From: Minisyncoccota bacterium
GTDB taxonomy: Bacteria; Patescibacteriota; Minisyncoccia; JAHIHE01; JAGLIN01
DNA: 64,000 bases
Direction of reading: 5' to 3'
Assembly (NCBI GenBank): GCA_041661265.1
Contig: JBAZUT010000002.1
Location: forward strand, 140,316-204,315
Part shown: positions 37,701-62,936 of the stretch, one piece after another
Position numbering within the stretch: the first letter of the stretch is position 1
Layout: each line of letters begins with the position of its first letter
Translations under genes and position numbers: made by a program
The notes under the pieces: model-generated
Seen by the model: the letters and a program-made list of their open reading frames with translations, nothing else
Database searches by the model: none
What the model was told of the DNA's origin: nothing

Positions 37701-39694
37701 ATCGAATATGTCCCTCCGACCGGAACAGTCGCAATTGGAAGTCCCAGATCCTCTCTGAAAACTTTAAAGTTTTGGGTGTTTGCATCATCCGAAATCCAGC
37801 TGATAGTTACTTTCGGGTTTCCGCCGGAACAAGAATCCAGCAGACTGACAACCGGTAAAGTTGGGAGACAGGAATCCGTTGTTATGGACTGCACAGCGGA
37901 ATATCCCCGCGCGACACCCGGATCGCCATTGGCAATGACCTGATAATAATAAGCGGTAGATGGATTCAGACTGTCGGTGTCATTCCAAGAATATGTGGTA
38001 TTGCCCACGGTGGCTTTCGTTGCCATACCGGCCTCAGACAACCCTCTTTTTATTTCATAGTTGATCGTGTTGCTTGTTGAAGACCATGAAAGACCAACCT
38101 TCGGATTGCCAAGCACGCACGATCCGGCAATAGAAAGAATGGGGGCATTTGGCGGAATACAATTCGATGCATTAATGGTCTCAGCCATGCTCGGAGCGGT
38201 CTGAGTCCCTTCCCTGCCGTTTGCAATGACGTAGTAGGTATATTCGGACCCCGCCTCGACTCCGGAATCGATATATGTCGTATTTGTCAGATTAAGAAGA
38301 GATGTGCCATTCCTATAAAGAGTATAATAGATCACGTTTTCCGAAGACGTCCAGCTGAGCCTTATCCTGGAATCCCCGCTGGCGCAGAAGACCTCGGGAC
38401 TGTTCAGGACCGGAGTGGGAGACGGTGGAACTATCGTGGCGCAATTAATGCTCTGGCTCACCGTATTGGAAGTGAAATTCGGATAACCGGTGACTCCGGC
38501 AACAACCTTATAATTCTGAGTACAGTTCGCCCCCGGACAATCGTCGGGGCTTAAATAGTCCACGAAAGAATTCGTACCGCTGCCGTACTGCCCCAAAAAA
38601 GATGTATCGTTTCTGAATAAATTATAAAAATCGGAATTCATTATCTTCGTCCAGCTGACATGCATCTCGGGATTTCCGGAGGCATCGCACATGCCGCTTG
38701 AACTGGCAAATGGCGAACAATAATAATTGGCTGTTTGTTTTGACAGTGAATTTTTTGCAACTTCCTCAAGATCCTTTATCCAGACCGCCTTGATGAAATA
38801 ATCCATGTTTCCGCTCTGCCAATAATTCAGAGGCATACTTCCCACAAGACTATCATCGTATGTCGTAGTGGCGGCATCAACGCTCATTAACAAAGAATAA
38901 TCCGGATCGCTTGGGGTTTTGCGGTATATTTCATATCTTGCCGCTCCCATCAGGCTGTTCCAGGATAAGCTTATTTTTTGCCCTCCCGGAGCACTGCTAT
39001 TGCAGCTTGTATTTGAACTCAATATTACAGGACAAGCCCTTGCCTCGATCGAAACGCTTGCCGAATTTTTTTTCGTTCCATCCTGCCAATTCGCCCGCAC
39101 GGAATATGAATATGAATTGGTTCCGATGATATTCGGACCGTCGTCATAAACATGGTCCGTTGTCTCGCCAATCTTCACGAACTCCGCTTCTTCGAGTGTG
39201 TCATTCTTCCTCAGGATCTCATATTTCAGGATATTCCCCGTTGCAGTGCTCCAGGTCAGACTATTGTGCGGACCATTGGCCTTGCACTCTGCATCCATCT
39301 CGGAAAAAACAGCTGCACAATAATTGGCTCCCGATGTCTTTTCGTTGGAAAAGATATCTCCGGATTTAACAGCTTTTATTTTGTAATGATAGCTTTTATC
39401 GCTTAAAGCGGAATTGTCAGTGTAGGACAAGGCTTCTGTATTTCCGATCTCCGAATAATTGATCTCGCTGGACAGTTTTCTCATAACATAGTACGTCGGA
39501 TTTCCGGGAATATCCGATGACCATGAAAGATCCACCACTCTTTTCGCATCAAGACAATCTTGGAGAGGTTCATTCTGGGTGATTGTCGAAGCAAAGGATG
39601 TCGGGACGAAAATAAAAAACAGCATAAAACCGATCAGACCTATAAACAAGATTCTTAACTTTGTGAAATCATATATCAAATGCATTTTTATCAT
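31742..39694 (-). CDS. giant secreted surface protein (2650 aa): N-terminal signal/TM, long array of FN3-like beta-sandwich repeats and two LamG (concanavalin-A-like) domains; C-terminal tail ...LKWDETTP
   Basis: N-terminal hydrophobic segment ILFIGLIGFMLFFIFVPTSFAS. Recurrent LSW...YxIYR... FN3-like units. Two LamG-like blocks (LNFDGSDDYVNAG...GEVRIYRRALSSTEV and LQFDGSDDYAAIA...IDEVRIYGRSLSGIEI). Confidence 0.85.
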   Translation of the reverse strand: MIKMHLIYDFTKLRILFIGLIGFMLFFIFVPTSFASTITQNEPLQDCLDAKRVVDLSWSSDIPGNPTYYVMRKLSSEINYSEIGNTEALSYTDNSALSDKSYHYKIKAVKSGDIFSNEKTSGANYCAAVFSEMDAECKANGPHNSLTWSTATGNILKYEILRKNDTLEEAEFVKIGETTDHVYDDGPNIIGTNSYSYSVRANWQDGTKKNSASVSIEARACPVILSSNTSCNSSAPGGQKISLSWNSLMGAARYEIYRKTPSDPDYSLLMSVDAATTTYDDSLVGSMPLNYWQSGNMDYFIKAVWIKDLEEVAKNSLSKQTANYYCSPFASSSGMCDASGNPEMHVSWTKIMNSDFYNLFRNDTSFLGQYGSGTNSFVDYLSPDDCPGANCTQNYKVVAGVTGYPNFTSNTVSQSINCATIVPPSPTPVLNSPEVFCASGDSRIRLSWTSSENVIYYTLYRNGTSLLNLTNTTYIDSGVEAGSEYTYYVIANGREGTQTAPSMAETINASNCIPPNAPILSIAGSCVLGNPKVGLSWSSTSNTINYEIKRGLSEAGMATKATVGNTTYSWNDTDSLNPSTAYYYQVIANGDPGVARGYSAVQSITTDSCLPTLPVVSLLDSCSGGNPKVTISWISDDANTQNFKVFREDLGLPIATVPVGGTYSIIDPNPLLITTTYKYKVVAAGYNAGQEASSVYQPVTTSNCSPPGPFILTDPPSASCQGPYPKVQLDWTNSANATSYDLLRSVSSPATINGVISPFGDVGHGNILNFDGSDDYVNAGTSADLDMTTNDFTVEVWAKADGGTYGRGIVNKGGWGSTGYFISEAYSPSNRYSFGVKDSSGYKAVSLPLYETWGWTHIVGIKKTNHLEAWVNGSSAGEYNGTINTLSNPTKALEIGRSYNPYYFNGSVGEVRIYRRALSSTEVAEHKNGVYANEADLVGLWYFDEGGGQIASDSSNYGRNATLGSAAGADSDDPAWGSGLLSKTNYSWRVDAFSSGGSASSNTISPFLTPECPPQRSNLVLSPLCSSNKAVVDISWPYAIDTSTYEIYRNGVLVRTAAQSIDPDLRKWTDDNAGAGLSDSTNYTYYIKSISPSSASSQSANRVVTTVYCAVLSAPTGLTAAFSCTGTPASTPRVSLSWNAVPGAASYDIYRNGLFLVNETVLTHEDTTVTVNTLYDYTVRAKNSGGESSDSSIASISLGKYCTPQKPVVSLGAGCSGGNPANNISWTGETYPNTAIYKIYRGTTNNFVDAGTVLIKTIDKATQPAAFGARTIIDNPSSPRLEDEATYYYWVQSIGPAPMNYTTLSDATNIVNLFCGPPESTNTLIGSFQCSGTPPSNPYAHMSWLSIGHATSYDVYRNGIFLTNVTTLTHDDYTIDVNTAYGYTVRGRSPFGQGADSNVISIAAGHYCTPSVPAIDPIVTVCESDQSKNTVSWTDATPDNTNNFEIYRSTGSVSISNFESVTFTPPGWTTGGDANWFRDTSASSDGSASAASGAIGNSQSAFIDYDITVSSPSALRFHWKVSSEDSYDFLLFCLDNDGCTRATGYRNRISGTSMASFAEMIVPISAGAHSFRWVYAKDDSTIGGSDRAWIDNVRIVSIDSAALLQTVGKNTLTWTDNGPLLPLTEYLYWIKANGPTGLLSFSAGATETFSCEAMPPVASLNASFACSGSNPYAALGWDNVPNATSYNIYRDGSYLTSRTTNSYDDMGIAVNTAYSYVVKAENDAGEGAGSNVALIGIGNYCVPFTPVIDPIYSNCSTNDPYNMISWSDDFPSGTQKYEIYRNTIDNMGSALLVKALDKTIPSDLAEFNSRAWTDSSAGLQDLWTYYYWIKAIGPTALTSFSSSRSVTTLFCGVPDVSTLALGSTYCDLNVPYADLSWTASANAYSYNLYRNNVSDSLQSVYFSVRSPITDGGSRSLQFDGSDDYAAIANESNFDFERDRAFSITAWLKPDASSTGIQEVITKASDYSPYRGWHLITNYYFPTSQVRAGTISFMMVNTWSSNAITVSTTSPSMLNDGGWHHYVITYDGSSLASGVRIYEDGISLGVTIDENSLSNTILSDAPVTIGARQGGSPQWHELFDGSIDEVRIYGRSLSGIEIAEQYNAIYKNELGLAGVWHFDEKAGVAAYDNSGNGSDGTLINGPERQSDSPNILSSLPLESNKNYKYAVKAMGIGNESAMSNEVSIIAPDCSPVQANLILTPGCDVSGTQIALSWLPDPNTSYWTIYKKRTSEPFAAYTCINCPGTTLTSYIDLNVESSASYDYYIEAHGSSSVAFSEEKTAIAMECFDVPAKPVISRDSGYVCGGALPGNTDNTVLPICAGSSSRMQINWAPYDESKTFSYNILRKNVSAGETNFSKIRENMPYLARTYIDGNINSVENYVYKVEAVGSGVDNSVESDPSLQTTSCDCLNIPPFYPPFLSLVSASYTLSAGGNVEIKWSDTQNETSYEIFRRLQGDSEFAYVGMGEKMDDLFGLFINKATAAYSTPLDSMVSGTDYEDPPPTGFVTFNDLTAQEDTTYEYQIRAVNAAGTTSSNIISPVYVPIAPPGDFMLDYENLPNRVRLDWSAAEYSVKGGPPVYTVYRDDNSDFSSAEVICLNVADFPVDSDNRICMDNDPLPGFAFYRVRAVNNSPIYTDSNTVPVLSTLKWDETTP

Positions 39695-47622: not shown

Positions 47623-47650
47623 AGTGTTTATTTAAAATTATTATAATGGA

Positions 47651-47968
47651 CTATCTATTGGTTCCATAGGAATCAAGTATTTCCTTCGGGATCACTACTT
47701 CATTTTTGGGGTCCGGTGCGACCGCGCCATCAGGACCATATGCCTCCAGCACTTCTTTAGACGGAACGATCTCCGGTTTCTTTTTTAATGATTCATCGTC
47801 AGATGGTCCATAGCTGTCATACACATCCCGCATAGTTCTTTTAGGCTGATCCGGCTGTTCGGGCGTCTCGGGTTTTACGTTCAGCAAAACATAGCATACA
47901 GCAACAATGAACACCAGAAAAACGGCAAACACCGCATAGATCAATTTTTTATCGTATTTAACCTGCAT
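47651..47968 (-). CDS. small single-pass membrane protein (105 aa), paralogue of the gene at 53519..53860
   Basis: TM helix LIYAVFAVFLVFIVAVCYVLL and a Pro/Glu/Lys-rich ectodomain. Shares the motif VIPKEILDSYG / EIPKELIDSVT with its paralogue. Confidence 0.6.
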   Translation of the reverse strand: MQVKYDKKLIYAVFAVFLVFIVAVCYVLLNVKPETPEQPDQPKRTMRDVYDSYGPSDDESLKKKPEIVPSKEVLEAYGPDGAVAPDPKNEVVIPKEILDSYGTNR

Positions 47969-47987
47969 TTTTTTATATTTATAATGA

Positions 47988-50900
47988 CTAAGGGGCCGCC
48001 TCGTTCCATTTTGGCTTATTACTCATGATATTTACGTCTTTTTGCTTGTCCCTGTCATGCGCCCAGCACTCTATCCCGCCGGAGTCTCTCACTCTAAGAT
48101 CAACTCGATAAACATTCGGCGTCGGATATGAGTATGTTTCCGTGTATCCGGGAGGAGGAGTTATCGCCTCGGCATCGGGCGTCACAGGGTTCGTTGCATA
48201 ATCAAAGAACCACTGATATCTGTCGATCGTATATGGCGGATCATCCGACCAGGACAATGAGGGATCAAAAACTATAGGCATGAACAGGAGTATGTTGCCG
48301 GCAGGAGCATATGTGAATTCCGCCCTGGGATATTGATGATCGGGAGAAGGATTCGGACTTCCAAGTTCATCCACACTGTCGGGAAACGGATCTCCGATCA
48401 TAAAATCTCCTTCGTTTATATTATTGTCGCTGTCGTAAACCCTAAGTTTCCAAATATATGTGAATCCTCCGTAATCTATAAAATTCGCGCCGCACAATGC
48501 CACTGAATTTATTTCGGTTCCCAAAAGATTGGTGGCATTATCATTCTTCTTGCCGGGTTTGCATTCAGCGACAAAATTTCCGATGCTATCGTATTTCGTA
48601 AGTTCGATCTCATAGGCCGACTGCATTCCATAGCCGTCTTCGGCATCGTTATACTCCCACCTCAGCGACACCGCTCCGGGCAGATCTTTCTTGCAATAAT
48701 CAATGCCCATCTGGCCGAATATCCATAAAGCCGGTTTATTGTCGCCTATCCTGATCTTTACGCCATCAAAGCTTATCCAGCCTCCGACAAGTCCCGACCA
48801 ACCCCATCCCGAAAGATCGCTTCCCGCCAGCACAACTTTATAGTTTGAAGTGCCGCAGCTGGCATCATTGATGCAATTCAAGGAGATCCATCCGTCCCAC
48901 CCTCCTCTTTCCTCGGGCGGACGAAGTGGTCCTGTACAATTATTTGCAAAAACGCTGCAAGCTCTGGCCCAGCCTTTAAATTCATTTCCGTCCAAGCGTG
49001 CCTGACAATTGCCCCCGTTTGGACATTCGGTCAGAATGAATGGCGGAGTAACAACATCTTTGATATCCGGCCAGTTGAAACTGACCCAGCCGAAATTCTC
49101 TCCCCAGGCATAACCCGAAAGATCATTAGTGCTTGTGCTAATTCTCGCTCCATAAGGGAAAGCGGTTCCCAAAGAAGGACAATTCGCCGGAGCGGCGCCT
49201 CCGTCCTCCAAAGCTCCTTCAAAAGTTCCATCGCCGTCAGTATCGCAATCCTTGCTGCTGAAACTTATCCATCCGATCGTATCACTCCAGCCAAACCCAT
49301 AAAGATTCGAATATTCTGCCGCCGGAATTACTGTCAATTTAAAAGTTTTCTCTTTGTTGGCAAGTCCCGCACTTTGGCCGGTTATTTTTATGATATAATC
49401 GCCTGTCGGAGTGCTCGGATCGATATCTATATCAAACGTGCGGGTGCAGTCCGGCTGGCAAACATTGCCTACCGACCAGCTTATGCCGATCAGAGGCTCG
49501 GAAGGGCTTATACTATAGGAAAGAAGGACGTCTTGCGCCGGCGCCTGGACCAAATTAATAACGGCACCCCTTGTTGCTGACGCTCCCGTCGTCAGAACCA
49601 TGTCCGACATATCCGATATTTCATAGTTGAAAAATGTTCCTATAGTGATCATGCCTGAATAGTCGCTTACTCCGTCGGAAGCCACGCCATAAACATAGTA
49701 ATTTCCGGGAACAATGCCAGCCGTATTCCAGTTACATATTGCCCCTGCGCTCTCCGGAACAGATCCACAGAGTGCGATTGCGCCCACGTAACCATTTGCA
49801 TTATTCATATCGTTATCATAATACAAAGCTGCGGTAGCTATATCATCCGGATCAATTAAAGAATAATTGATCCCAAAAACATCTCCCTGTGCCACTGAAT
49901 CGCCGTTTGGCGATGTTATATTGAGAATGGAGGGAATGTCAGCTGAAATTTCTTCCGCTCCGATACAGACTCCCGGTTCAGGCGAGGCATATTTGCTTCT
50001 GAGATAGTATCTGCTAATTTCACCTGCGGAAAGCGCACGGTCATAGAGGCGAACTTCATCCATCTCGCCATCAAACACCTCCCCCGGGTGCTCAGAGCCG
50101 AACACAGCACTATTTCCTATATAATATTGGGTCGTTCCGGAAGATGAATTATTGAAAAAGAATTTGCTGGCTGCGTTTCCCGCGTCATAATTAACAACAG
50201 CCTGCTTTACGCCATCAAGATAGAACTCATTTCCTGAGCCGGAAACGACATATGCAACAAGATGCCAATTGGTCGGATTAGATACCTGGACATAACCGTC
50301 AAATTCCGCATTACAATCGCCATTAGCGCTTCCCCAAACCTCAAAATAAGTCGTGCCAGCAACAGTAGTCATGGCTATTTCAAACGGATACGTGCAATTT
50401 CCCGAATCCGCTGTAAATATCGAGTCAAAACCAGATGCTCCGGCATTGGCCTTGACCCACGCCATAAAAGTTCCGGAGGTCAGTCCATCAAAGACGTTGT
50501 CTGGCGAAATGGATACATAATCATTTGTTCCGTCAAAGCTGAGTGAATTTCCGGCAGAAAACTGCAGATTACGGCTGTCCCATTGACCTCCATCCGAGGA
50601 AGTCCGGATAGGATTGTCGGGTGCACCGCCCATTGTTCCGCCGTTTCCACTACCCGAACTGTCCGAAACTGTCGCACCTGCCGCTTCATCCATATGCCAA
50701 AGTCCCACAAGTCCGGACTCCGCGTAGTCTTTTGTGAAAGTGTTGTCATAACTGCCGACGCTTGATGCAGCCGCATTTCCATAGTACATATATATCGTAT
50801 CGGTTGCAAAAGCAGGTACGTTTGGAACCTTTACCCAAAAATCGGCTGTTGAAGAATCAGTTTTGCTTTCAAGCCAGTAATAGATCGGGGTCGATCCATC

Positions 50901-51482
50901 CGAAGATGTAAATCTGATATCGTCAAAATCCGATTGCATATCTGCATCATATGCAATTGTCACTTTTATCTGATGATCAACAAGATTCGATCCTGAATTC
51001 TCGGAAATGATTATCGGTTTCCTCTTTGTCCAATTAGAATCAAGCCATGATCCTCCTCCGGTCTTAAGACAACCCAGGCCAACCGGAATAGCACTTGCCT
51101 CATCAGACTGTGGACCTTCGCCAATCAAATTAACGGCTGACACTTTGTAAAAATATGCAGTGCCATTGGCAAGACCAGAGTCAGTGCAGATTGTTGTATT
51201 TCCAAGACTTGAACAGCCTCCCAAAGCAAGCAATGAATATGAACCATTAGTCGGGCTGCTACGATAAACTCTGTAATTTGTGATCGCAGAACCGCCATTG
51301 TCCGGCGCGGTCCAAGATAAAGATATTTGAGTATTGCCGGAAGTAGCATTCAAACCGGCTACTTGAGCGGGAGCAGATGCGGCACCTGCATAATAGACAT
51401 ATTCAAAACACAATAAAACAGCAGCAACAATAATTATTGCCGGAATATATTTTTTATTTTTTAATGCCAAACCTACTGGCAT
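47988..51482 (-). CDS. giant secreted surface protein (1164 aa): FN3 domain, LamG domain, C-terminal GW-rich repeats; C-terminal tail ...SNKPKWNEAAP
   Basis: Signal/TM IPAIIIVAAVLLCF. The FN3 block (ISLSWTAPDNGGSAITNYRVYRSSPTNGSYSLL...YFYKVSAVNLIGEGPQSDEASAIPV) is ~75% identical to an FN3 in the 2848-aa ORF. LamG block LSFDGTNDYVSIS...MDEVRLYDRALSAGEI. The C-terminal GWISF/GWVSF repeat region is homologous to the C-terminus of the 2848-aa ORF. Confidence 0.85.
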   Translation of the reverse strand: MPVGLALKNKKYIPAIIIVAAVLLCFEYVYYAGAASAPAQVAGLNATSGNTQISLSWTAPDNGGSAITNYRVYRSSPTNGSYSLLALGGCSSLGNTTICTDSGLANGTAYFYKVSAVNLIGEGPQSDEASAIPVGLGCLKTGGGSWLDSNWTKRKPIIISENSGSNLVDHQIKVTIAYDADMQSDFDDIRFTSSDGSTPIYYWLESKTDSSTADFWVKVPNVPAFATDTIYMYYGNAAASSVGSYDNTFTKDYAESGLVGLWHMDEAAGATVSDSSGSGNGGTMGGAPDNPIRTSSDGGQWDSRNLQFSAGNSLSFDGTNDYVSISPDNVFDGLTSGTFMAWVKANAGASGFDSIFTADSGNCTYPFEIAMTTVAGTTYFEVWGSANGDCNAEFDGYVQVSNPTNWHLVAYVVSGSGNEFYLDGVKQAVVNYDAGNAASKFFFNNSSSGTTQYYIGNSAVFGSEHPGEVFDGEMDEVRLYDRALSAGEISRYYLRSKYASPEPGVCIGAEEISADIPSILNITSPNGDSVAQGDVFGINYSLIDPDDIATAALYYDNDMNNANGYVGAIALCGSVPESAGAICNWNTAGIVPGNYYVYGVASDGVSDYSGMITIGTFFNYEISDMSDMVLTTGASATRGAVINLVQAPAQDVLLSYSISPSEPLIGISWSVGNVCQPDCTRTFDIDIDPSTPTGDYIIKITGQSAGLANKEKTFKLTVIPAAEYSNLYGFGWSDTIGWISFSSKDCDTDGDGTFEGALEDGGAAPANCPSLGTAFPYGARISTSTNDLSGYAWGENFGWVSFNWPDIKDVVTPPFILTECPNGGNCQARLDGNEFKGWARACSVFANNCTGPLRPPEERGGWDGWISLNCINDASCGTSNYKVVLAGSDLSGWGWSGLVGGWISFDGVKIRIGDNKPALWIFGQMGIDYCKKDLPGAVSLRWEYNDAEDGYGMQSAYEIELTKYDSIGNFVAECKPGKKNDNATNLLGTEINSVALCGANFIDYGGFTYIWKLRVYDSDNNINEGDFMIGDPFPDSVDELGSPNPSPDHQYPRAEFTYAPAGNILLFMPIVFDPSLSWSDDPPYTIDRYQWFFDYATNPVTPDAEAITPPPGYTETYSYPTPNVYRVDLRVRDSGGIECWAHDRDKQKDVNIMSNKPKWNEAAP

Positions 51483-51564
51483 GGATAATTTTATTTTTGT
51501 TTATTGTTCTTTCCAAATCCTATTTACGAAAGACAGATATTCCCACACCCCATGCCGGACAAAT

Positions 51565-51858
51565 TTATTTTGTCGCGCCATCAGCCGGGGCCGGATCCTG
51601 CTTCAGACAGCTGACACTTATCAGCTGGACCTGCTCTTTGTCATTGTAAATGGAGAATGGATCGCATTTTTCGTTTTTAGCCTGGGAGATCGCCGCATTT
51701 ATCATGTCGGTCTTGCCCTGCTGGTATCCCGATTGCAACGCAGCGCTCAACTGCTCTTTTTTGAAATCATCCCAAATATCTATAGCGACATATACAACAG
51801 AAAAAAGAATCCAAAAACTGACTGCGACCAAACTGACGGCTTTTTTGTCTATCTTCAT
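51565..51858 (-). CDS. small single-pass membrane protein (97 aa)
   Basis: TM helix AVSLVAVSFWILFSVVYVAI. Confidence 0.45.
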   Translation of the reverse strand: MKIDKKAVSLVAVSFWILFSVVYVAIDIWDDFKKEQLSAALQSGYQQGKTDMINAAISQAKNEKCDPFSIYNDKEQVQLISVSCLKQDPAPADGATK

Positions 51859-52098
51859 TGCTTTATTTATTTATTTAGCTAATCTTTGCATACTGCATCA
51901 ATTACAACACTTATAGTATAACACATTTCACGCATTATTACACAACAAAATATCGTATCAAAAAATTATCTATTTATCATGTTTCAATGCCCTCAATTTC
52001 CTTTTGCTTATTTCTGTCATTTCCCGCTATTCCTGAATTGCCTTTGTAGGATATGGGATGATTTCGTCTGTTTTCATTTCCAACATTTCATCCTCTCT

Positions 52099-53493: not shown

Positions 53494-53518
53494 TTTTATA
53501 AAATTAATATTATATAAA

Positions 53519-53860
53519 TTATTTCTGAGCAGATGTTGTAGAATCTATTAACTCTTGTATTTTTCTCTCCCTTTCTTTGGAACTTAATTCCGTTTCATTC
53601 GGATCCGGAACCTTCTCCGGAGCAGTCACTGAGTCGATCAGCTCCTTCGGAATCTCCTTTTTGATTCCATCGTCCGGCGCATTCACAGTTTTCATCATTT
53701 CCTCTAGCGGATCTGCCTCCTTCTCCGGAACTGCTTTCGGAATTCTTCCTATGTATCCGCCAACATACAGTATAATGAGCACCAGAGCAACAACGAAAAA
53801 TACTATTGCGTTAAGCAGATATTCGTTGTCTTTCCTTTTCGGCAGCTTCCTCGGTTTCAT
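53519..53860 (-). CDS. small single-pass membrane protein (~113 aa from MKPRKLPKRK)
   Basis: The listed ORF (to 53965) overlaps the 3' end of the giant gene. The internal start at 53860 lies 23 nt past the giant's stop. TM helix LLNAIVFFVVALVLIILYVGGYI. Confidence 0.55.
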   Translation of the reverse strand: MKPRKLPKRKDNEYLLNAIVFFVVALVLIILYVGGYIGRIPKAVPEKEADPLEEMMKTVNAPDDGIKKEIPKELIDSVTAPEKVPDPNETELSSKERERKIQELIDSTTSAQK

Positions 53861-53883: not shown

Positions 53884-56800
53884 CTATGGCGCAGCTTCGT
53901 TCCATTTCGGCCTCTCGCTCATGACATCTATGGGCTGCAGAGTGAATCTTTCGCTCGCATAGCAACTATATACCTGAGCGGAAGAATCGGTTACTTTCAG
54001 GTCCACCGCAAAGGTTCCCTGATCTGCGTAATTGTGGACTACATTATAACCCAAAGCCGGTCCGGGGTCGGAGAAGGTGTCAATGTCATTCGGCGTCCCA
54101 TCTCCAAAGATCCATTCCATTTCTTTTATATAATATCCGGCCGCAACCGAAGTCGGCTCCGCAAGCGGATTTCCGGAAACATCATTAAAAGGATCGAGTG
54201 TCACGTCCATGAATTGCAGGATGTCCGTATCCGGAGAGTATGAAAAATTAGCGACAGGATAAGAATGGTCCGGGGTCGCAATAGGACTATTCGGATCCGA
54301 ACTGTTATAAGGGAACTTCACCCCCGGAGTCACTGCGCTTGCATTATCCTCACTGTCATAAACAGTAACATTCCATGAATATGTAAAATTTCCATAATCT
54401 ATAAACCCGGGACAGAAGCCGTTGATATCATTACCCGTCAAAGTGTTTATGAAATCAAATTGTTTTCCCGTCGAACACACGGCCAGGTCGCTCCTCTCAA
54501 CGTCAACCCGATATGCACTCTGAGACGTTCCTGCCGCGTCATCTTCCACGTCAGTGAAGACCCACGAGATCCTTTCCGCCCACGGATCCTGCCTGCAAGG
54601 ATCGATCGAGGTCGCGTTTGCATTCGTAACGGACGGGTTAAACGTTCCGACGCTGACGCAATAATCAGCTCCGTTGCAAAAACTGATCCAGCCTGTCACG
54701 TCGCCTCCCCACGCCCAGCCGTTGAAATTTCCGCCACTCAGGATAACTTTGTAATTGCCCGAATTAACCGGAATCGTCAGATTATCAATGCCGCCGCAAG
54801 CCACGTCAAGAAACTCATTATTATCCGTATCGCAATCATCGGCCAATATGATGCCATCGCCTCCGCAGCTTACATCAAGTCTCCCGTTATTATCCGTATC
54901 GCAATTATTTATATTTCCTTTCAAATTGATCCACCCGTCCCAGTCACCGGTTTCCCAAGGATTTTTAAGCGCGCCCGAACAGTCTGCACTAAACACCGAA
55001 CAAGCCCTCGCCCAGCCGATAAAATCACCTGCGCCATCAAGACTTGCCTGGCAGGCTCCCGACGGACAGCCGGAAATATCGCCAAAATCAGGATCTCCCG
55101 AAACTCCATAACCGAAAGTTATCCACCCGATATTCTCACTCCATGCATAACCCGACAGAATTCCGCCTGAGTCCAGATTTACTCCATAAGATTTGACTGC
55201 GCCATTGGTCTGGCAGCCTGGAGGCGCGGGAGTTGAACCGACAGGAACCCCTTCGCTGTTTCCTTCATATATCCCATCCTTGTCAACATCGCAATTCTTG
55301 CTGTTGAAGCTTATCCAGCCTGCAGTCGAGCTCCACGCAAAACCCATAACATTTGAATTTTGAGCTTCGCACCCGGGCTTTGAAGGATCCGTCGTAATAT
55401 TCGGTCCGTCCGTTACCGCGCTCGAAAGAACATCCGTCTCATCCCAAACAGTGAGATCCCAATACAAAGTTTTTCCATATGCAGCCGCTCCAAAATCCGC
55501 ATCATAGGTTGTGCTCGATGATAATACAATTCCCGTATTCAAAATATTATTCGTCTTTCCTGCATCATCATACACCCTGATCCGGTATGATTTTTGCGCA
55601 AATTGCGGAGTCGTATTGGATTGATATGTCCAGGAAAGATCATATCTGTTGTCGCTTGTGCAATTATTTATCGGACCCGCAACACTAAGACCGGACACCG
55701 TTGGCGGGACACATTGAAAAACGGTTCCCTGCTGACCATTGTCGCCCCCATTGATTCCCGTACCGCCATTAACATTAAAGCTGCCTCCGTAAGTATTAGA
55801 ATTAGAACAATTCACAATCCTTCCGCCACCGCCGCCGCCATTGCCATTTATATTTCCTCCATTGCCGCCATTTGAAGTGATAAGACCGGAAGCCAAACCG
55901 GTTAGATTATTTGAAATCAAGAAAATCGATCCTCCGGCGCCTCCCCCTCTCGGGCCAACCGCACTTAAACCGGAAGCGTCAATTATTCCGCTGTTGGTAA
56001 GACTATTTGTGATCATTATTTTGATCATTCCGCCGCCAGTGCCACTGGCAGGAGCTCCGGCACCCGCGAAAGCCGAGCCGCCATCGCCTCCGATTCCGCC
56101 ATATCCGCCTCCTCTATTGTTCTGGAAACTACCCGTTTGTCCTCCCGAACCCAGATCATTCGGATTAGTGAGAGATCCATACGTATTGCCTCCGGTGTTT
56201 CCCGAACCGGGTCCTTCGTCGGCAGAATAACCCTTTCCAATCGCATCAATTTTGCCTCCGGCAATTATAGTAAGATTATTAAGATTCAAATCGATATAAT
56301 TAACCTTGGCATTTGTGTTCGCAATATGACTCAGCGTTCCAGCGATGGTTAAATTCCTTAAATTTGGAAAATTCGTCGTAGTTGGCGAGAAAGTATTCAC
56401 GGTAAAGTTGCCGTTAAGCGTCATATCCGTGAAACCCAGGCTTATTGCATTGAGATTCCCGGTATTGGTTCCAATACCGTTTATGTTTATCACATCCGCG
56501 CCATTAACCGTAAACAGACTGTTATTATCCAGCACGCCGACAGATGTAAGATTCGTGACGCCATTTGCGGTAAAAGTTCCATTATTGGTTATACCCCAGA
56601 AAGACCATGCCCCCGTATTTAAAGCTGTGATATTTACACCCGGATTGATCTTGAAATGCCCTCCATTTGTGATCGTGAGATAATCAATGTTCATATTGGC
56701 ACCGACAGGAGTCATTTCCCCGGCCACACCGTTATTTATCAGACTTAAATATCCGTTTGGATTTGCACCATCGTCTTTGTCTTTTGAATAAATAGTTCCC

Positions 56801-59800
56801 GCACCTCCATATACAGCCGAACCGGATGGCGCCCCGCCATAGGCTATCGCCGATCCTAAATAAGATTTTGCATTGTAGCGATATGAGATCCTTCCGCCGC
56901 CGCCGCCGCCATTATTATTTGTATTGCCGCCATTCCCGCCGCTTGCGATCATTGAGCCCGTAGCTGCTCCTCCAAAATTATTCGTATCGACATATATTGT
57001 TCCGCCCGATCCTCCCGCCCTCGTTCCCGTAGCATTGCTTCCCGAGACATTGATCGTACCATTAAGCATGAGAGTGTTCCCGATCGTCAATTTAACCAAT
57101 CCGCCGCCCGTGCCGCCGCCCGCCGGCGCTCCGGCTCCGGCCCAAGCCGAACCTCCATCGCCTCCGATACCTCCGAATCCGCCTCCCCTATTATTCTGGA
57201 AACTTCCTGATTTACCGCCGGAACCCAAGTCATTCGGATCGGTAATCGATCCATATGCATTGCCTCCGGTGTTTCCTGAACCCGCACCCTGATCTGCCGC
57301 GTAACCTTTGCCAGCCGCATCGATCTTTCCTCCTGCATTAACTGTCAGATTATCAAGAGTCAGATCAATATAATTGACGGGAGTATTATTATTTGCAAGA
57401 TGACCCAAAGTTCCGTTCACGGTCATATTTACAAGTGAAGCAAAACTAGTTGTTGTCGGCGAGAAAGTATTGACGATAAGCGTACCGTCAATTGTAAGAT
57501 TGGGAACATTATTAGCTATTAAATTCCCATTATTAGTGACAGTTGCGGTATTGTTTATCGTTAAGTTGTTTATATTCCGAACATCGAAATAGCTGTTATT
57601 ATTAAGAACGCCGGTTACAGTCAGACTCGCCACACCCAATGCCGAGAAATTCCCGTTATTGGTTATGCTCGAGAAAGACCATACGCCGGTGTTGTAAGCG
57701 TCCAAATTAACGCCGGAATTTATGCTGAGATGGGCGCCATTCGCAACCGTTAGAATATCAATCAGCATGCTGTTCTCGAGTGGCGTGATCTCTCCGGAAA
57801 ATCCATTATTATCGAGAGTCAGATAACCGTTCGGGTTCAGGGCGTCTGATTTATTCTTTGAATACACCGTGCCGGCTCCGCCATATGTAGCCGCGCCTGT
57901 TCGCGCTCCGCCAAAAGCAACGGCAGTTCCTGTATATGTTTTTGAATTAAAGTAGTATGCGATCCTTCCGCCTCCGCCTCCGCCATTGTCATTGGATGCG
58001 CCCGCTGACCCGCCATTTGCGATCATCGAACCCGTTGCGGCGCCTGCCAGATTGTTCACATCGACATATATCGATCCGCCCGATCCACCGGCTCTTGTTC
58101 CGGTAGAATTAACTGCCGAAGCATTTATCGAGCCATCCAAGGTCAGAATGTTGCTGATAGTCAATTTTACCGAACCGCCGCCGGCCCCACCGGTCGCAGG
58201 CGCTCCGCAGCATCCCCCGGTACCCGCCCCTCCTTTTCCGCCATAGCCCGCGCCTCTTCTTCCGGCAAATGCCCCTGATTCTCCGCCGGAACCCATTTCA
58301 TTGGGATTAGTGATAGATCCATAAGTATTACCCCCTAAATTCCCCGAACCGGCGCCCTGGTCTGCAGCATATCCCCTGCCGACTGCGTTTAGTACGCCCG
58401 TAGCGGCAATATTTCCGCTGGTCGCAATTATTTCAACCTTGCCATAATTCGTTCCGTCATAAGCTTTGACATAAACCGTCCTGCCGGCGGGTATGCTGAA
58501 ATTATTGATATTGCAATGCGTTCCCGCTATGTCTATTATTCCGGCAGTCGCATTCAAATCCCAAGCATCTCCGTCCGTCGGAGTCCAATTTGCCCCACCA
58601 TGATCGATCCCGGCGCATGGAGCGACGGGAACAGCGCTCGCCTCATCCGATTGAGGACCTTCGCCTATGATATTCGAAGCTGAAACTTTATAGTAATAAG
58701 TAGTGCCATTAACCAGTCCCGTATCCGTGCATGTGAGCACATTTCCAAGGCTTGAACAGCCACCTGCTATTAATAAAGAATAAGAACCATTAGTGGGACT
58801 ACTTCGATACACTTTGTAATTGGTAATAGGTGAACCGCCATCAGCCGGAGCGGTCCAAGACAAAACTACCTGAGCATTCCCAGCTGCAGCCGCTAAGCCA
58901 GTTACTTTATCGGGAGATGATATAACGCAACGGATAGAATTCGCGTCTACTTTAGACCAACTATCGGGGTCTCCTCCTTTTGGAACACCAGAATAAAGAT
59001 ATCTTAGAAATGCATCGCTTGCATTAATCTGAGTCGACGACCAAAGATGCGTATCAGCACCAATATCCCAAAAATTATTAAAAGAATAGCTACCACTCCA
59101 AAGCGCCTCGAATCCCGCTTGACCGCCCTGGTCAAGTTCTGCTTCAGCATCTGAATATCCATAGAAACCTATCACATAATTTCTTAAGATATCGAACTCT
59201 GATTGCTGAGGAATATGCCATCCGGCGGGACAGAGCCCCTGAACAGGCTGAGTTATGAATGCGGAACAGTCGCCTGTCCTGCACGAATTAGGCACCCGTA
59301 AAGCTTCCGTCCACTGATATAAACCGCCATACATATTGCAATTATTATTTCCGGTTGCGATCTGTCCGGCATTTCCATCTGTCATATAGCCATAGCAATA
59401 TTTTTCAACAATTCCATTATCGGTCTGATCTTGATAGGTTACGTTATCATCCAGCTTTCGGCTGATCATCTTTCCCAAAGTAAGGTTTTCTTTTGTCCAG
59501 CATTGATTTCCTATCTTAACGGTGTTATAGATATTGCCTTCGACATCCGCAGCTGAAGGAAACGGCGGACAAGCATTGGTAAGGGCAGCAAGGATCGTCG
59601 TCGGAGCCGATAACATTGAAGCACCGTTTACGGTTCCATCATTGGGAATGACTTCAACCGTGATCACATTTCCGGCGACATAATTCGCGGAAGTTAAAGT
59701 TGAAGCCGTTGCTCCGGCAATATCCACACCTCCCTTTTTCCATTGATAAGCATAGGTTATCGGGTCCCCATCGGCGTCCGTGGCGGAAACAAGCGCCGCC

Positions 59801-62340
59801 AAATTCGGCGTGCTGGCATATGCAGGACTCGGGGTTATGGTTACCAAAGTCATGACAGGAGATGCGTTCGACGAACCTGAACATGCTGCTAAAGGATTGG
59901 ATTCATTGCAATCCTCTCCCACAAAATCGCGAGTGCCATTGTTTATTCCAAGCTGATTCCAGCACGATCCCCCTGTTGACTTGCATGAACAATTTGAAAG
60001 CGTCGCACCGGTCACTCTCAGGGTCCCGCCCGCACCGGTTGCGCTGGTTCCCGGAAGATCAAAAAATCCCGATCCCATCCAGTCTATGAGACCTCCGTTC
60101 TTCGCCTCAAGAACAGTTGAAGAGCAGTTGGGAGCATAATAAGTGTCAAGTCCGGTCATATCGATCGTCCCGCCATTTTGTCCGCAAACTCCGAAATTTT
60201 CGCACGAATTGGCATGTATCCCGCCCTTGAAATAACCCGAACCAGTTATACTGACATTTCCCGCTTTTCTTGAGCTTGATGTTGAGATCAGACTGCCGGA
60301 ACCCTCAACGCCGATGCTTCCGCTGCCGGTCAGATTCACAACGCCTCCGTTCACGCCGGCAATATTCGTGTTCCCGGTTTTGATCAACGACGATCCGCTT
60401 AATACTGTGTCATTTGAAAAAGTTATATTGACATTGCCGCCTGTTTTTGCCGGCCCGCCTGCCGCATTGCTCCCCTCGGTATAGATCTTCAAATTCGATC
60501 CTCCCGGAAAAATCGAGGCCCCACCCGCCCCGGTAACATCCAAATTTCCGCCGTTTCCAGTCAAAGTGTCCGGAACACTGAGGTCAACAATAAGCCCTCC
60601 GTTCGGATAGAAGATATCTCCGCCGGTCATATTGATATTTCTGGCGTTCGTGCTTGATGTTGCTTTTCCGTCTATCAGAACTTCAGTGTTCGCTCCGACA
60701 AACTTGTTTCTGAAATCGATATCCGTTCCCGTCAGGTCAAGATCGCTCGACAGGATTATTCTCAGAGGATTTGGCGTGTTCGCATTGACATCAATACTGA
60801 CGCCTGTATGCGAACCTCCAAGATAGCATGGATTTTGGGTTATCGTGCAATTTCCAGAAACTGGACAGCACTGAGACGCCGTGACCATAAATGAATATTT
60901 TCCCACTGCGGGACTCAAGCTGATATTTCCGGCTCCATCAGTCGCTTCCGATTGATATTCGATCACATCGCCCGGAGTAAGCGGACCGTTTATCGCAAGT
61001 TGATGCAAACCTCCCGTAGCCCAGGTGCTCACAGGCTGAAGGACTCCGTTTATCCAATATCTTATCTTGTGATCAACGATTATGCCTGAATCATCCGAGG
61101 CTGTTGAATAGATCGTCACTTTTTCAGTGGGTTGATCGATATCCGCATAATTGACAACTCCCCCATCAGCAACCTGAACACCCAAAGAATCCGGCCTCCA
61201 TGCAGCTGTCGTCAAAGTTGGATTTATCGTGTCGGGAATCCCGCTGATTATACTGAATTTGCTCGTGCCTTCAGAAGAAACATAAGAATATCCGCTTCTG
61301 AAAGAAAGACCGTAAGGCATATCTAGATTGGCAGAATCCTGTAAGAAATCCGCTATTACTGGATTATTAGCGTTAGAAATATTAACTAACGTTAAAGTAT
61401 CGGAATCATAAGCGGAAACATATGCCATGAAACCGAAAACCTTAACCCCTTTCGCACCATTCAGTCGATTATTGTCTTTAACAGAACCGACTATTACAGG
61501 ATTCGCAGGATCAGAAATGTTCACAATGGTCAATCTGTCTCCTTCAGGTGTCACAGGTCCCGTCCCACGTGATGTCACATAAGCGTAAGGACTGGCAATA
61601 TCAACTCCATATGCTGTATTCAGCTGCTCATCATCCCTCACGGATCCCACATAACTCATTGCAAGGGGATTGGAAATATCTATAATAGTCAATCGATTAC
61701 CTTCGGTCGGACAAGCACCATTTCCTCCTCTCGCCGTAACATATGCAAGACTGCCGACAATTTTCAAATCCCACGCTCCGCATAATTCATTATTTCTCTG
61801 AATTGATGATGCAACGGAAGGGTTTGCCGGATTTGAAATGTTCACTGCCGTTAATCGATTTTGATATCTCGCAGTTACATACGCATAATTTCCCGAAACA
61901 AAAACGCCCGTTGGAGTATCAAGATTTACTCCATCGGCTACAAAACCCGCAATAAATGGCACTGCAGGATTTGTAATATCTACAACACTTAATGTGTCGG
62001 CTGCGCGCGATACAACATATGCGTAATTTCCATATACATAAACACTGTATGCCTCGTTAAGCGTTACCCCATCACAGACCGATCCGACATAACTGGGAGC
62101 TGTCACAGTTGTAATGTCGAGAATTGTAAGACAATCAACAGAAGGTGCGGTCACATAAGCATAATTACCGGAAATTGTCGAATTCCATGCGCCGCTCATA
62201 TTCGGATGAGTGTATGAACCGACTATTCCGAGCGCTGCATCCGCCTTGCCGGCAGATAAACTTGAAATTAAAAATAAAACCAAAAAACACAAAAGGCTCG
62301 TGATCGTTTTTCTCACTTTTGAAATGTTTTTTAATTTCAT
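53884..62340 (-). CDS. giant secreted surface protein (~2818 aa): signal peptide, LVIVD-repeat beta-propeller, Fibrobacter-succinogenes-type paralogous domain, FN3, 3 x ~355-aa Gly/Asn-rich tandem repeats, GW-rich C-terminal region; C-terminal tail ...SERPKWNEAAP
   Basis: Start taken at the internal MKLKNISKVRKTITSLLCFLVLFLISSLSAGKADA; the listed ORF runs to 62430. LVIVD repeats (GNYAYVTA...LTIIDISNPANP). FISUMP-like block (GNQCWTKENL...GGLYQWTEAL...GLCPAGWHIPQQSEFDIL). An FN3 shared with the 1164-aa ORF. Three GKGYAADQGAGSGNTGGN... repeat units. Confidence 0.85.
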   Translation of the reverse strand: MKLKNISKVRKTITSLLCFLVLFLISSLSAGKADAALGIVGSYTHPNMSGAWNSTISGNYAYVTAPSVDCLTILDITTVTAPSYVGSVCDGVTLNEAYSVYVYGNYAYVVSRAADTLSVVDITNPAVPFIAGFVADGVNLDTPTGVFVSGNYAYVTARYQNRLTAVNISNPANPSVASSIQRNNELCGAWDLKIVGSLAYVTARGGNGACPTEGNRLTIIDISNPLAMSYVGSVRDDEQLNTAYGVDIASPYAYVTSRGTGPVTPEGDRLTIVNISDPANPVIVGSVKDNNRLNGAKGVKVFGFMAYVSAYDSDTLTLVNISNANNPVIADFLQDSANLDMPYGLSFRSGYSYVSSEGTSKFSIISGIPDTINPTLTTAAWRPDSLGVQVADGGVVNYADIDQPTEKVTIYSTASDDSGIIVDHKIRYWINGVLQPVSTWATGGLHQLAINGPLTPGDVIEYQSEATDGAGNISLSPAVGKYSFMVTASQCCPVSGNCTITQNPCYLGGSHTGVSIDVNANTPNPLRIILSSDLDLTGTDIDFRNKFVGANTEVLIDGKATSSTNARNINMTGGDIFYPNGGLIVDLSVPDTLTGNGGNLDVTGAGGASIFPGGSNLKIYTEGSNAAGGPAKTGGNVNITFSNDTVLSGSSLIKTGNTNIAGVNGGVVNLTGSGSIGVEGSGSLISTSSSRKAGNVSITGSGYFKGGIHANSCENFGVCGQNGGTIDMTGLDTYYAPNCSSTVLEAKNGGLIDWMGSGFFDLPGTSATGAGGTLRVTGATLSNCSCKSTGGSCWNQLGINNGTRDFVGEDCNESNPLAACSGSSNASPVMTLVTITPSPAYASTPNLAALVSATDADGDPITYAYQWKKGGVDIAGATASTLTSANYVAGNVITVEVIPNDGTVNGASMLSAPTTILAALTNACPPFPSAADVEGNIYNTVKIGNQCWTKENLTLGKMISRKLDDNVTYQDQTDNGIVEKYCYGYMTDGNAGQIATGNNNCNMYGGLYQWTEALRVPNSCRTGDCSAFITQPVQGLCPAGWHIPQQSEFDILRNYVIGFYGYSDAEAELDQGGQAGFEALWSGSYSFNNFWDIGADTHLWSSTQINASDAFLRYLYSGVPKGGDPDSWSKVDANSIRCVISSPDKVTGLAAAAGNAQVVLSWTAPADGGSPITNYKVYRSSPTNGSYSLLIAGGCSSLGNVLTCTDTGLVNGTTYYYKVSASNIIGEGPQSDEASAVPVAPCAGIDHGGANWTPTDGDAWDLNATAGIIDIAGTHCNINNFSIPAGRTVYVKAYDGTNYGKVEIIATSGNIAATGVLNAVGRGYAADQGAGSGNLGGNTYGSITNPNEMGSGGESGAFAGRRGAGYGGKGGAGTGGCCGAPATGGAGGGSVKLTISNILTLDGSINASAVNSTGTRAGGSGGSIYVDVNNLAGAATGSMIANGGSAGASNDNGGGGGGRIAYYFNSKTYTGTAVAFGGARTGAATYGGAGTVYSKNKSDALNPNGYLTLDNNGFSGEITPLENSMLIDILTVANGAHLSINSGVNLDAYNTGVWSFSSITNNGNFSALGVASLTVTGVLNNNSYFDVRNINNLTINNTATVTNNGNLIANNVPNLTIDGTLIVNTFSPTTTSFASLVNMTVNGTLGHLANNNTPVNYIDLTLDNLTVNAGGKIDAAGKGYAADQGAGSGNTGGNAYGSITDPNDLGSGGKSGSFQNNRGGGFGGIGGDGGSAWAGAGAPAGGGTGGGLVKLTIGNTLMLNGTINVSGSNATGTRAGGSGGTIYVDTNNFGGAATGSMIASGGNGGNTNNNGGGGGGRISYRYNAKSYLGSAIAYGGAPSGSAVYGGAGTIYSKDKDDGANPNGYLSLINNGVAGEMTPVGANMNIDYLTITNGGHFKINPGVNITALNTGAWSFWGITNNGTFTANGVTNLTSVGVLDNNSLFTVNGADVININGIGTNTGNLNAISLGFTDMTLNGNFTVNTFSPTTTNFPNLRNLTIAGTLSHIANTNAKVNYIDLNLNNLTIIAGGKIDAIGKGYSADEGPGSGNTGGNTYGSLTNPNDLGSGGQTGSFQNNRGGGYGGIGGDGGSAFAGAGAPASGTGGGMIKIMITNSLTNSGIIDASGLSAVGPRGGGAGGSIFLISNNLTGLASGLITSNGGNGGNINGNGGGGGGRIVNCSNSNTYGGSFNVNGGTGINGGDNGQQGTVFQCVPPTVSGLSVAGPINNCTSDNRYDLSWTYQSNTTPQFAQKSYRIRVYDDAGKTNNILNTGIVLSSSTTYDADFGAAAYGKTLYWDLTVWDETDVLSSAVTDGPNITTDPSKPGCEAQNSNVMGFAWSSTAGWISFNSKNCDVDKDGIYEGNSEGVPVGSTPAPPGCQTNGAVKSYGVNLDSGGILSGYAWSENIGWITFGYGVSGDPDFGDISGCPSGACQASLDGAGDFIGWARACSVFSADCSGALKNPWETGDWDGWINLKGNINNCDTDNNGRLDVSCGGDGIILADDCDTDNNEFLDVACGGIDNLTIPVNSGNYKVILSGGNFNGWAWGGDVTGWISFCNGADYCVSVGTFNPSVTNANATSIDPCRQDPWAERISWVFTDVEDDAAGTSQSAYRVDVERSDLAVCSTGKQFDFINTLTGNDINGFCPGFIDYGNFTYSWNVTVYDSEDNASAVTPGVKFPYNSSDPNSPIATPDHSYPVANFSYSPDTDILQFMDVTLDPFNDVSGNPLAEPTSVAAGYYIKEMEWIFGDGTPNDIDTFSDPGPALGYNVVHNYADQGTFAVDLKVTDSSAQVYSCYASERFTLQPIDVMSERPKWNEAAP
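55700..58400 (-). repeat. intragenic tandem repeat, 3 copies of ~1065 bp (~355 aa), inside the 2818-aa giant gene
   Basis: Nucleotide-level similarity between 56040..56300, 57090..57340 and 58150..58400. The protein units each begin G(K/R)GY(A/S)ADQGAGSGN and contain GGGFGGIGGDGGSA and GGGGGGRI(S/A/V) blocks. Boundaries are approximate. Confidence 0.7.
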
Positions 62341-62363
62341 TTTTGTTTTAAACTTCTGAATTA

Positions 62364-62936
62364 TTAGTAAGACTCTTTTATCTGAACCCCTCCCTCGCCG
62401 ATCGCCGTGATATCCGTAACCTCTCCGCATTTATTGATCATTAATTTATATGCATCATTATCTTTTTGGAATGGGACCATTTTATCCTGTCCATCGATCT
62501 TCAAAGTGAATCCTGCTATATCGCATTTTTCACCTGTCAGAACCCGAACCTTGATCTCCCCAAGATCGTCTTTACATTCTCCTTTTGCGATCACAGCAAG
62601 TCTTCCGCCGCATTCCGTGACGTCGGCGTTCGCCTTTTCCCTGTCGGACTTTTCGCGATATTTCTTTTCGATAACATCATTGAGATCGGCTGTTTCAATC
62701 CCATAATTTCCTCCGCAGTCGTATATCTTGCAGCTTTTCGATTCCCGCTCATTGCATAGGTAATTGAGATCGCAACTCTTATCAGCGCAATTATCTTTCA
62801 ATATGCTGCATTTTGCGAAATCAATGCCCTTTTCACCGGCTTCTCGCTTGGACAATACGACAGCCAGGATCGCTCCCAATATAAAAATCGACGAAATAAA
62901 AACAAACAGGGCAATATCTATATTTTTATTTTTCAT
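62364..62936 (-). CDS. Cys-rich single-pass membrane protein (190 aa)
   Basis: TM helix IALFVFISSIFILGAILAVVL and an ectodomain with ~14 Cys (CSILKDNCADKSCDLNYLCNE...). Confidence 0.5.
   Translation of the reverse strand: MKNKNIDIALFVFISSIFILGAILAVVLSKREAGEKGIDFAKCSILKDNCADKSCDLNYLCNERESKSCKIYDCGGNYGIETADLNDVIEKKYREKSDREKANADVTECGGRLAVIAKGECKDDLGEIKVRVLTGEKCDIAGFTLKIDGQDKMVPFQKDNDAYKLMINKCGEVTDITAIGEGGVQIKESY

Follow-up and report, generated by a model that had tools for sequence, protein, structure and literature searches.

Large genes with internal tandem repeats raise the question of what their products do at the cell surface, and whether the repeat serves genetic variation or structure. 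Here, we address this question for a 2818-amino acid (aa) protein encoded on the minus strand of a 64,000-nucleotide (nt) stretch of DNA from a Minisyncoccota bacterium (assembly GCA_041661265.1, contig JBAZUT010000002.1, positions 140,316 to 204,315; this whole stretch is referred to as the window, and its coordinates are used throughout). The locus contains one real gene for a secreted, adhesin-like surface protein of an uncultured, ultra-small Candidatus Paceibacterota bacterium (Patescibacteria/Candidate Phyla Radiation (CPR)). We suggest that this protein is probably a Sec-exported, multi-domain adhesin at the cell surface that is built from a head, a stalk and an anchor. The internal repeat of the protein is real and far beyond chance.

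The gene lies in one uninterrupted minus-strand open reading frame (ORF; 53884..62430), in which the ATG at 62340 (MKLKN) gives the 2818-aa product. This start is located 23 nt past the stop codon of the upstream gene and agrees with two public gene calls, from NCBI and ENA. The open frame and the matching gene calls thus confirm the initial annotation of this DNA, which had placed a protein of ~2818 aa at 53884-62340. The exact protein is present at NCBI under the name [quoted passage not shown] (MAG, metagenome-assembled genome) and stems from a 249,682-bp contig. By way of a 99.96%-identical cluster mate, we located the same 2818-aa gene on a MEGAHIT contig at ENA (ERZ27249449 k141_252614), with one substitution in 8457 nt; this contig and the window differ by one mismatch over an overlap of 20 kb. 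A promoter and terminator scan around the gene gave background level only.

To delimit the repeat units, we used as an anchor the motif G(R/K)GY(A/S)AD(Q/E)G, which is repeated three times (aa 1321, 1677 and 2035). The array (55705..58437, aa 1302-2212) has the order A-B-A-B-A, in which A is a Gly-rich domain of ~200 aa (27-30% Gly) and B is an Asn-rich spacer of ~155 aa (19-21% Asn). In other words, two full units of ~357 aa (U1 and U2) and a half unit (U3) together make up ~2.5 copies with a period of 1068-1074 nt; in a repeat search, short blocks of these copies were 68-75% identical. In blastn alignments, U1 is 68.8% identical to U2 (1325 columns, E=9e-133) and 65% identical to U3. In codon-aligned DNA, the three unit pairs are 62.5%, 57.2% and 65.3% identical, the corresponding proteins are 58.7%, 49.5% and 60.5% identical, and the longest in-register identical DNA runs are 14, 11 and 18 nt. 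Comparison of the whole protein against itself by blastp returned the identity match only; the internal repeats were instead seen with sliding 150-aa queries, with which the repeat pieces match each other at E-values of 1e-27 to 1e-50. Similarly, Tandem Repeats Finder run on 52-64 kb reported nothing within the gene because the repeat is too diverged. Thus, what had been described as a near-identical 3 x 1065-bp tandem repeat does exist, but as ~2.5 x 1071 nt with 57-69% identity in DNA and 50-60% in protein; likewise, of the three ~355-aa Gly/Asn-rich units that had been proposed, two are full units while the third is an A domain only. The 914-aa repeat region has no close relative in GTDB genomes or JGI metagenomes. 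The plus strand opposite the repeat contains three ORFs longer than 100 aa (55841-56230, 56345-56683 and 56924-57292). The first and the third are Pro-rich because they are the complement of GGN codons for Gly, and these ORFs are by-products of the repeat composition and no genes.

The estimated rates of nonsynonymous (dN, 0.29-0.43) and synonymous (dS, 1.5-1.9) substitution between the units, with a dN/dS ratio of ~0.2 (Nei-Gojobori), indicate that the copies are old and that the duplicates are under purifying selection. This age bears directly on the proposal that the tandem DNA repeats recombine and, by changing their copy number, give rise to size and phase variation of the adhesin. The units are indeed arranged in tandem, ~1071 nt apart, and the copy number of 1-12 in the wider A-domain family implies that units are gained and lost over evolutionary time. 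However, contingency adhesins of this type, which we defined by tandem DNA repeats of more than ~95% identity or by simple-sequence tracts able to recombine or slip, look different. For RecA-dependent recombination in E. coli, the minimal processing segment is ~20-30 nt. The in-register runs shared between units, at 14-18 nt, are below this size, and the longest exact direct repeat anywhere in the 8457-nt gene is 19 nt, with none of 20 nt or more. Moreover, the gene has no homopolymer of 7 nt or more, its sole microsatellite being an in-frame (GGC)5, and thus no tract prone to slippage. The second assembly also has an identical repeat structure. We consider variation by recombination of the repeats very improbable. 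The same data speak to the concern that the array is a likely site of assembly collapse, i.e. that the repeat was collapsed or expanded and the length of 2818 aa is wrong. Repeats in MAGs from short reads are a general assembly risk; here, no k-mer of 20 nt or longer is common to the units and collapse in a de Bruijn graph is thus not expected, the reading frame is open over the whole 8.46 kb, and the MEGAHIT contig reproduces the gene. We therefore regard an assembly artifact as extremely improbable. In short, without near-identity there is no ground left for recombination, for size or phase variation or for assembly collapse.

What, then, is the repeat unit? Searches against Pfam, NCBIfam, PHROG and PDB sequences gave no match for the A-B unit, Pfam has no match over the A domain in 84 family members, and the A-domain profile found among PDB sequences only an insignificant match to a phage spike (E=0.56). 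By contrast, a search with this profile of 1.84 billion cluster representatives yielded 19,772 proteins with a cutoff of E<=1e-3, of which 6,953 also pass E<=1e-30; a word-indexed search gave 136 matches. The best matches are giants between 1400 and 7100 aa long in which the A domain is present 5-12 times and recurs every 240-390 aa. In these multi-copy proteins, for instance MFH1745535.1 of a Planctomycetota bacterium ("dockerin type I domain-containing protein"), the array spans almost the whole protein and is followed by a C-terminal Ig domain and a dockerin, whereas the window protein has three A domains and ends in a module typical of Patescibacteria (below). Named carriers belong to the Patescibacteria, Planctomycetota, Lentisphaerae, Verrucomicrobia, Desulfobacterales, Dormibacteraeota and bins of DPANN archaea. 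An ALK/LTK-type glycine-rich domain, a lead suggested by the GGGGGG runs, was dropped: the unit has no Pfam match at E<=1, the 84 members have none either, and no such chain was found by profile or fold search of the PDB; the only related matches are viral and insignificant (E ~3.5-3.8). The Chlamydia Pmp repeat was also dropped as a homolog, for lack of profile or fold support.

We modeled A2 and B2 (aa 1630-2040) using AlphaFold2 with an alignment of 84 sequences. The model (mean pLDDT 83.2, pTM 0.84) is all-beta with many short strands, and its top fold neighbors in the PDB, all weak (E>=0.2), are the beta-helix adhesins HxuA, Ag43, tapirin, UpaB and Hap. The suggestion in the initial annotation that the units are likely beta-helical is therefore in line with the all-beta model and the nature of these neighbors, while none of the neighbors is significant. 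There is no indication that the protein is an autotransporter or a two-partner secretion (TPS) protein, with a best Foldseek E-value of 0.2, a probability of at most 0.33 and no Pfam match to either type. In the A domains of the window protein, the block GG.G(Y/F)GG.GG comes after the block YGS.T.P..LGSGG, not before it as in the family consensus; the relocated stretch (aa 1710-1745 and equivalents; ~57105-57212, ~58180-58290 and ~56030-56140) is the sole low-confidence part of the model.

Right-handed beta-helices are frequent hosts of carbohydrate-active sites, and it could be argued that the repeat region is catalytic, as a lyase or hydrolase of the pectate-lyase or CASH type, or that the protein is a structural component of an S-layer or the envelope. 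For giant proteins of other ultra-small bacteria, a role in the degradation of host surfaces has been put forward (PMC10066038, PMC12057145), and the FISUMP domain together with LamG-type neighbors suggests glycan binding. However, the A-B region has no enzyme-family match in Pfam, NCBIfam or PDB sequences, neither here nor in the 84 family members. Also, the near-invariant positions of the A domain are nearly all Gly, together with Arg, Asn, Ile, Tyr, Ser and Ala, and include no conserved Asp, Glu, His or Lys. We therefore consider this explanation quite unlikely.

Outside the array, profile hidden Markov models (HMMs) and inspection of the sequence gave the domain map in Table 1, and the order signal peptide, LVIVD, FISUMP, FN3, GW region and KWNEAAP tail proposed in the initial annotation is essentially right. 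The first 35 residues have a basic n-region, a 17-aa hydrophobic core and an A-D-A cleavage motif, and lack a lipobox and a prepilin motif. For LVIVD, the test was a score above the gathering cutoff together with tandem ~45-aa repeats. PF08309 scores 84.3 bits (cutoff 20.2) with three stretches passing individually, and self-comparison as well as inspection of the sequence revealed seven repeats of the type YAYV...L.(I/V)(V/I)(D/N)I(S/T) in aa 36-390; the pattern would be consistent with a 7-bladed propeller. FISUMP is matched by two models, TIGR02145 (69.5 bits, cutoff 41.65; model positions 8-174 of 176) and PF09603 (65 bits, cutoff 33.9; positions 1-186 of 187), and FN3 by PF00041 (37.1 bits, gathering cutoff 25). 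The LVIVD and FISUMP segments have no relatives among PDB sequences. These searches also added Ig-like and PKD domains. PF18911 scores 31.7 bits on the isolated PKD segment (cutoff 27) and 26.5 bits, just under the cutoff, on the whole protein. The second Ig-like domain near the C-terminus has a profile match to the N-domains of rhamnosidases. The region between LVIVD and FISUMP includes a weak Ig-like match (Big_7), an Ig-like "DADGDPITYAYQW" domain with a weak match to ZirU, and a Gly/Asn/Ser-rich stretch (aa 545-834, 18.6% Gly). When nine sub-segments were scanned with Pfam at E<=1, no family was found for the A-B unit, the GW region or aa 545-834, and NCBIfam added to the protein only FISUMP and sub-threshold choice-of-anchor-B and ZirU matches.

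Table 1. Coordinates of the 2818-aa gene, its domains and selected neighboring genes.
Feature	Residues	Position in window	Strand	Basis or remark
Coding sequence of the 2818-aa protein		53884..62340	minus	NCBI MFA6096473.1, 8457 nt
Sec-type signal peptide, MKLKNISKVRKTITSLLCFLVLFLISSLSAGKADA	1-35	62236..62340	minus	Read from sequence
LVIVD repeat region	36-390	61171..62235	minus	PF08309, internal repeats, motif positions
Beta-rich region without family	395-934	59539..61158	minus	Weak Ig-like matches only
FISUMP (Fibrobacter succinogenes major paralogous) domain	935-1139	58924..59538	minus	TIGR02145, PF09603
FN3 domain	1140-1240 (match 1148-1235)	58621..58923	minus	PF00041
Repeat unit U1	1302-1657	57370..58437	minus	A1 (Gly-rich) 57835-58437, B1 (Asn-rich) 57370-57834
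Repeat unit U2	1658-2015	56296..57369	minus	A2 56761-57369, B2 56296-56760; AlphaFold-modeled
Half unit U3	2016-~2212	55705..56295	minus	A3 only, without B spacer
Ig-like domain Ig_Rha78A_N	2213-2310 (match 2232-2306)	55411..55704	minus	PF25788, 46.1 bits
GW-rich region	2311-2560	54661..55410	minus	Four motifs of the type G(W/Y)AWS.N.GWI(S/T)F
Second Ig_Rha78A_N-like domain	2561-2700 (match ~2590-2672)	54241..54660	minus	23.5 bits, below cutoff
PKD domain	2701-2807 (match ~2738-2787)	53920..54240	minus	PF18911
C-terminal tail SERPKWNEAAP	2808-2818	53887..53919	minus	Instance of P-x-W-x-E-[IVTA]-x-P at C-terminus
1164-aa paralog		47988..51482	minus	FN3, DUF2341, LamG, C-module and KWNEAAP tail
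PilC		42442-43650	minus	Type IV pilus gene
Three N-methyl pseudopilins		40726-42431	minus	Type IV pilus genes
2650-aa FN3/LamG giant		31742..39694	minus	Ends KWDETTP; tail without GW/PKD module

The C-terminus of the protein belongs to a conserved module of ~500 aa, here referred to as the C-module, which consists of the GW-rich region, an Ig-like domain, a PKD domain and a C-terminal P-x-W-x-E-x-x-P motif. Over its last 509 aa, the protein shares 37% identity with the C-terminal end of the 1164-aa neighbor, and the family profile matches the solved PKD domain of ColH (E=1.5e-20). A search with the C-module returned 796 proteins, most of which have 400-500 aa and consist of an N-terminal signal sequence and the module alone; others carry N-terminal FISUMP, LamG/DUF2341, SBBP, CARDB, CBM or Big_2 domains. 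The architecture that had been called mosaic thus really stems from a constant C-module joined to variable cargo. In 79 of 120 homologs, P-x-W-x-E-[IVT]-x-P is found 0-4 residues from the C-terminus, and ~14 of the 120 have instead an amphipathic extension of 17-29 aa (FLASLFSFF(R/K)). Neither NCBIfam nor Pfam has a model for the tail motif, we found no literature on it, and a literature search for strings of GW motifs or for a C-terminal sorting signal in the CPR gave nothing relevant. In the AlphaFold model of the C-module (pLDDT 83.6), the C-terminal half resembles FN3/Ig tandems; the GW part has no known relative in a PDB sequence profile search. We tried Listeria GW modules and choline-binding repeats as relatives of the GW-rich segment and rejected them, as Pfam gave no match at E<=1 and profile positions 1-240 have no PDB sequence relative. 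Within the GW region, two 23-aa copies of CDTDNN(G/E)(R/F)LDV(S/A)CGG form a mini-repeat of 69 nt with 76% identity (54790-54908), a lineage-specific insertion relative to the 1164-aa paralog; judged by their sequence, the Asp-rich loops of these copies are possibly of a calcium-binding type.

Relatives of the C-module occur in at least 404 stretches of GTDB species representatives, almost all of them from Patescibacteria. PHROGs contain no match for either the repeat unit or the C-module, and because the C-module was not found in viral contigs, we reject a phage origin. In the Parcubacteria genome GCA_023128895.1 (6192-11956), two stand-alone C-module proteins of 431 and 651 aa, both ending in PLPNWKE(V/I)IPF, flank a separate 573-aa LVIVD protein. 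In other words, domains that are fused in the 2818-aa protein are encoded by adjoining genes elsewhere.

Between 31742 and at least 64000, every gene is on the minus strand, in an array of ~32 kb. Starting from 64000, small transmembrane (TM) proteins are followed by the 2818-aa gene, a small TM protein, a 464-aa tail-fiber-like protein and the 1164-aa paralog, and then by another small TM protein, an 865-aa tail-fiber-like protein, a 462-aa protein, PilC, three pseudopilins, two small proteins and the 2650-aa giant. The three giants end in related tails, i.e. PKWNEAAP in the 2818-aa protein (within 53887-53919) and in the 1164-aa protein (47991-48011), and LKWDETTP in the 2650-aa protein (31745-31765), all on the minus strand. 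On this strand, a cassette of three genes, i.e. a tail-bearing giant, a TM protein and a tail-fiber-like protein, seemingly occurs twice (43706-53851). The TM proteins of the cassette (53519-53851 and 47651-47968) have ~105-128 aa with acidic IPKE(I/L)(L/I)DS repeats, and the tail-fiber-like proteins (52099-53493 and 45025-47622) match PHROG 9942 (E=1e-18 and 2.5e-30). The FN3 domains of the 2818-aa and 1164-aa proteins (58621-58923 and 51093-51384) are 68% identical in protein and 71.5% in DNA, far above the 37% of the C-modules, which suggests that the two genes exchanged this domain or that it was duplicated more recently between them. Immediately after the signal or anchor helix, the two tail-fiber-like proteins and LVIVD neighbors in GCA_023128895.1 (3088-9970) have in common an N-terminal motif of the form ...(F/L/V)AW(T/S/D)(E/G)P..PP..N. 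The AW(T/S/D)(E/G)P motif is found in 15 of 83 loci and resembles the C-terminal W-x-E-x-x-P tail; its co-occurrence with tail-bearing ORFs is weak, with both in 7 loci, the tail only in 16, the N-terminal motif only in 8 and neither in 52.

The pilus genes in this array raise the possibility that the protein is exported or displayed by the type IV pilus machinery, or docks to the pilus through its C-module, rather than being anchored in the wall, an explanation that overlaps with the one we favor. In its support, the gene shares a same-strand array with pilC and pseudopilin genes, and on k141_252614 a prepilin peptidase gene is located upstream. Moreover, among 80 related loci of ~13.6 kb each that were scanned for pilus genes, a PilC homolog was found in 15 and a prepilin-like ORF in 18. 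PilC is thus enriched near C-module loci relative to an expectation of 1.4-2.7% for random windows, which is a rough estimate (based on genomes of ~1 Mb with one or two pilC genes) and not a measured value; most loci are without pilus genes. On the other hand, the N-terminus is a classical Sec signal and not a class III prepilin signal, and the protein has no N_methyl match, as opposed to three of its neighbors. Furthermore, 65 of the 80 loci have no PilC within ~10 kb, and none is present at the GCA_023128895.1 locus. We therefore consider it unlikely that the protein depends on the pilus or is associated with it. Speculatively, and with similarly low confidence, the C-module and its P-x-W-x-E-[IVT]-x-P tail might form a surface-display or docking system specific to Patescibacteria and functionally linked to type IV pilus loci and to the AW(T/S/D)(E/G)P neighbors. 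The 2818-aa protein would then be one cargo of an undescribed sorting or attachment pathway, and the A domain an undescribed fold that builds giant fibers in many uncultured phyla.

The gene, its domains, the divergence of its repeat, the distribution of its families and its genomic context are direct observations; the function of the protein as an adhesin, the role of its stalk and its anchored end are what we infer. In the head-stalk-anchor model that we favor, the LVIVD propeller, the Ig-like domains, FISUMP and FN3 would constitute a head that presumably binds ligands. The A-B-A-B-A array, predicted to be a continuous, all-beta, solenoid-like and rigid rod, would form the stalk together with an Ig domain. 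The C-module, to which diverse cargo is fused here, would be the anchoring or docking end. The internal repeat derives from old duplications followed by purifying selection, and would supply length and rigidity rather than genetic instability. The same-strand array with type IV pilus genes, two tail-bearing giants and two tail-fiber-like proteins suggests that the protein likely serves to contact a host or partner cell or to attach to it; for the organism, a lifestyle attached to other cells is expected.

Several observations weigh against this model. The protein has no recognized wall or membrane anchor signal, i.e. no LPXTG-like motif anywhere and no C-terminal TM helix, and its C-terminal SERPKWNEAAP lacks a hydrophobic segment; the cell-proximal end was assigned solely by analogy to Gram-positive adhesins. 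In the structural model, the A domain begins with ~70 residues that lack regular secondary structure, among them 30 lineage-specific positions modeled with low confidence. When the A-B model was searched with Foldseek against PDB and BFVD, no match was significant (E>0.1), and the putative beta-solenoid is drawn only from the secondary-structure pattern and the weak fold neighbors. Finally, a single substitution in 20 kb between the two assemblies indicates that they come from the same population, and their agreement is thus a helpful but not a fully independent test.

The design of the protein is similar to that of the Gram-positive stalk adhesins Rib/alpha C, SasG and Esp, which have a signal peptide, a binding head, a repeat stalk and a C-terminal anchor. 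Both share the head-stalk-anchor logic and export by a Sec signal peptide. However, the window protein has neither an LPXTG nor a TM anchor, its repeats share 57-69% of their DNA sequence instead of being nearly identical, so that no size variation by recombination is expected; moreover, its stalk is predicted to be solenoid-like, while the stalks of the Gram-positive proteins are Ig-like beads. Beta-helical adhesins (Ag43, Hap, UpaB, the TPS domains of HxuA/FHA and the Caldicellulosiruptor tapirins) are likewise elongated, all-beta, repetitive adhesion rods. With Foldseek E-values of at least 0.2 and TM-scores of at most 0.33, homology to them is not demonstrable, and the window protein has neither an autotransporter barrel nor a TpsB partner. 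Also, the organism comes from a group that lacks the classical outer-membrane route of secretion.

Earlier work already interpreted large, beta-rich repeat proteins from Parcubacteria as adhesins (PMC4508563; PMC10066038). The Parcubacteria/OD1 proteins of more than 1500 aa described by Nelson and Stegen (2015, PMC4508563) come from the same phylum-level group and are also large, secreted, rich in beta-sheets and internally repetitive, and were suggested to help the cell attach to a partner cell. They were reported without a domain-level description, while here a head, an A-B array and a C-module are resolved. Thus, the protein is ordinary in kind: it is already in GenBank, and large adhesin-like proteins are known in Parcubacteria. 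As the supposed near-identical, recombinogenic repeat is absent, the claim as first written matters little. By contrast, the A domain and the GW/P-x-W-x-E-x-x-P module are two widespread building blocks that are not described in databases. The first is an unannotated Gly-rich domain of ~200 aa with ~20,000 cluster representatives, repeated as many as 12 times within the giant proteins of several uncultured phyla, and the second is a Patescibacteria-wide module of ~500 aa that is enriched near type IV pilus genes. To us, the most interesting thread is the motif at the C-terminus, with its possible connection to pilus loci. Defining both modules would improve the annotation of the "dark" surface proteome that presumably lies behind episymbiotic attachment in the CPR, and would provide targets for structural and proteomic work.

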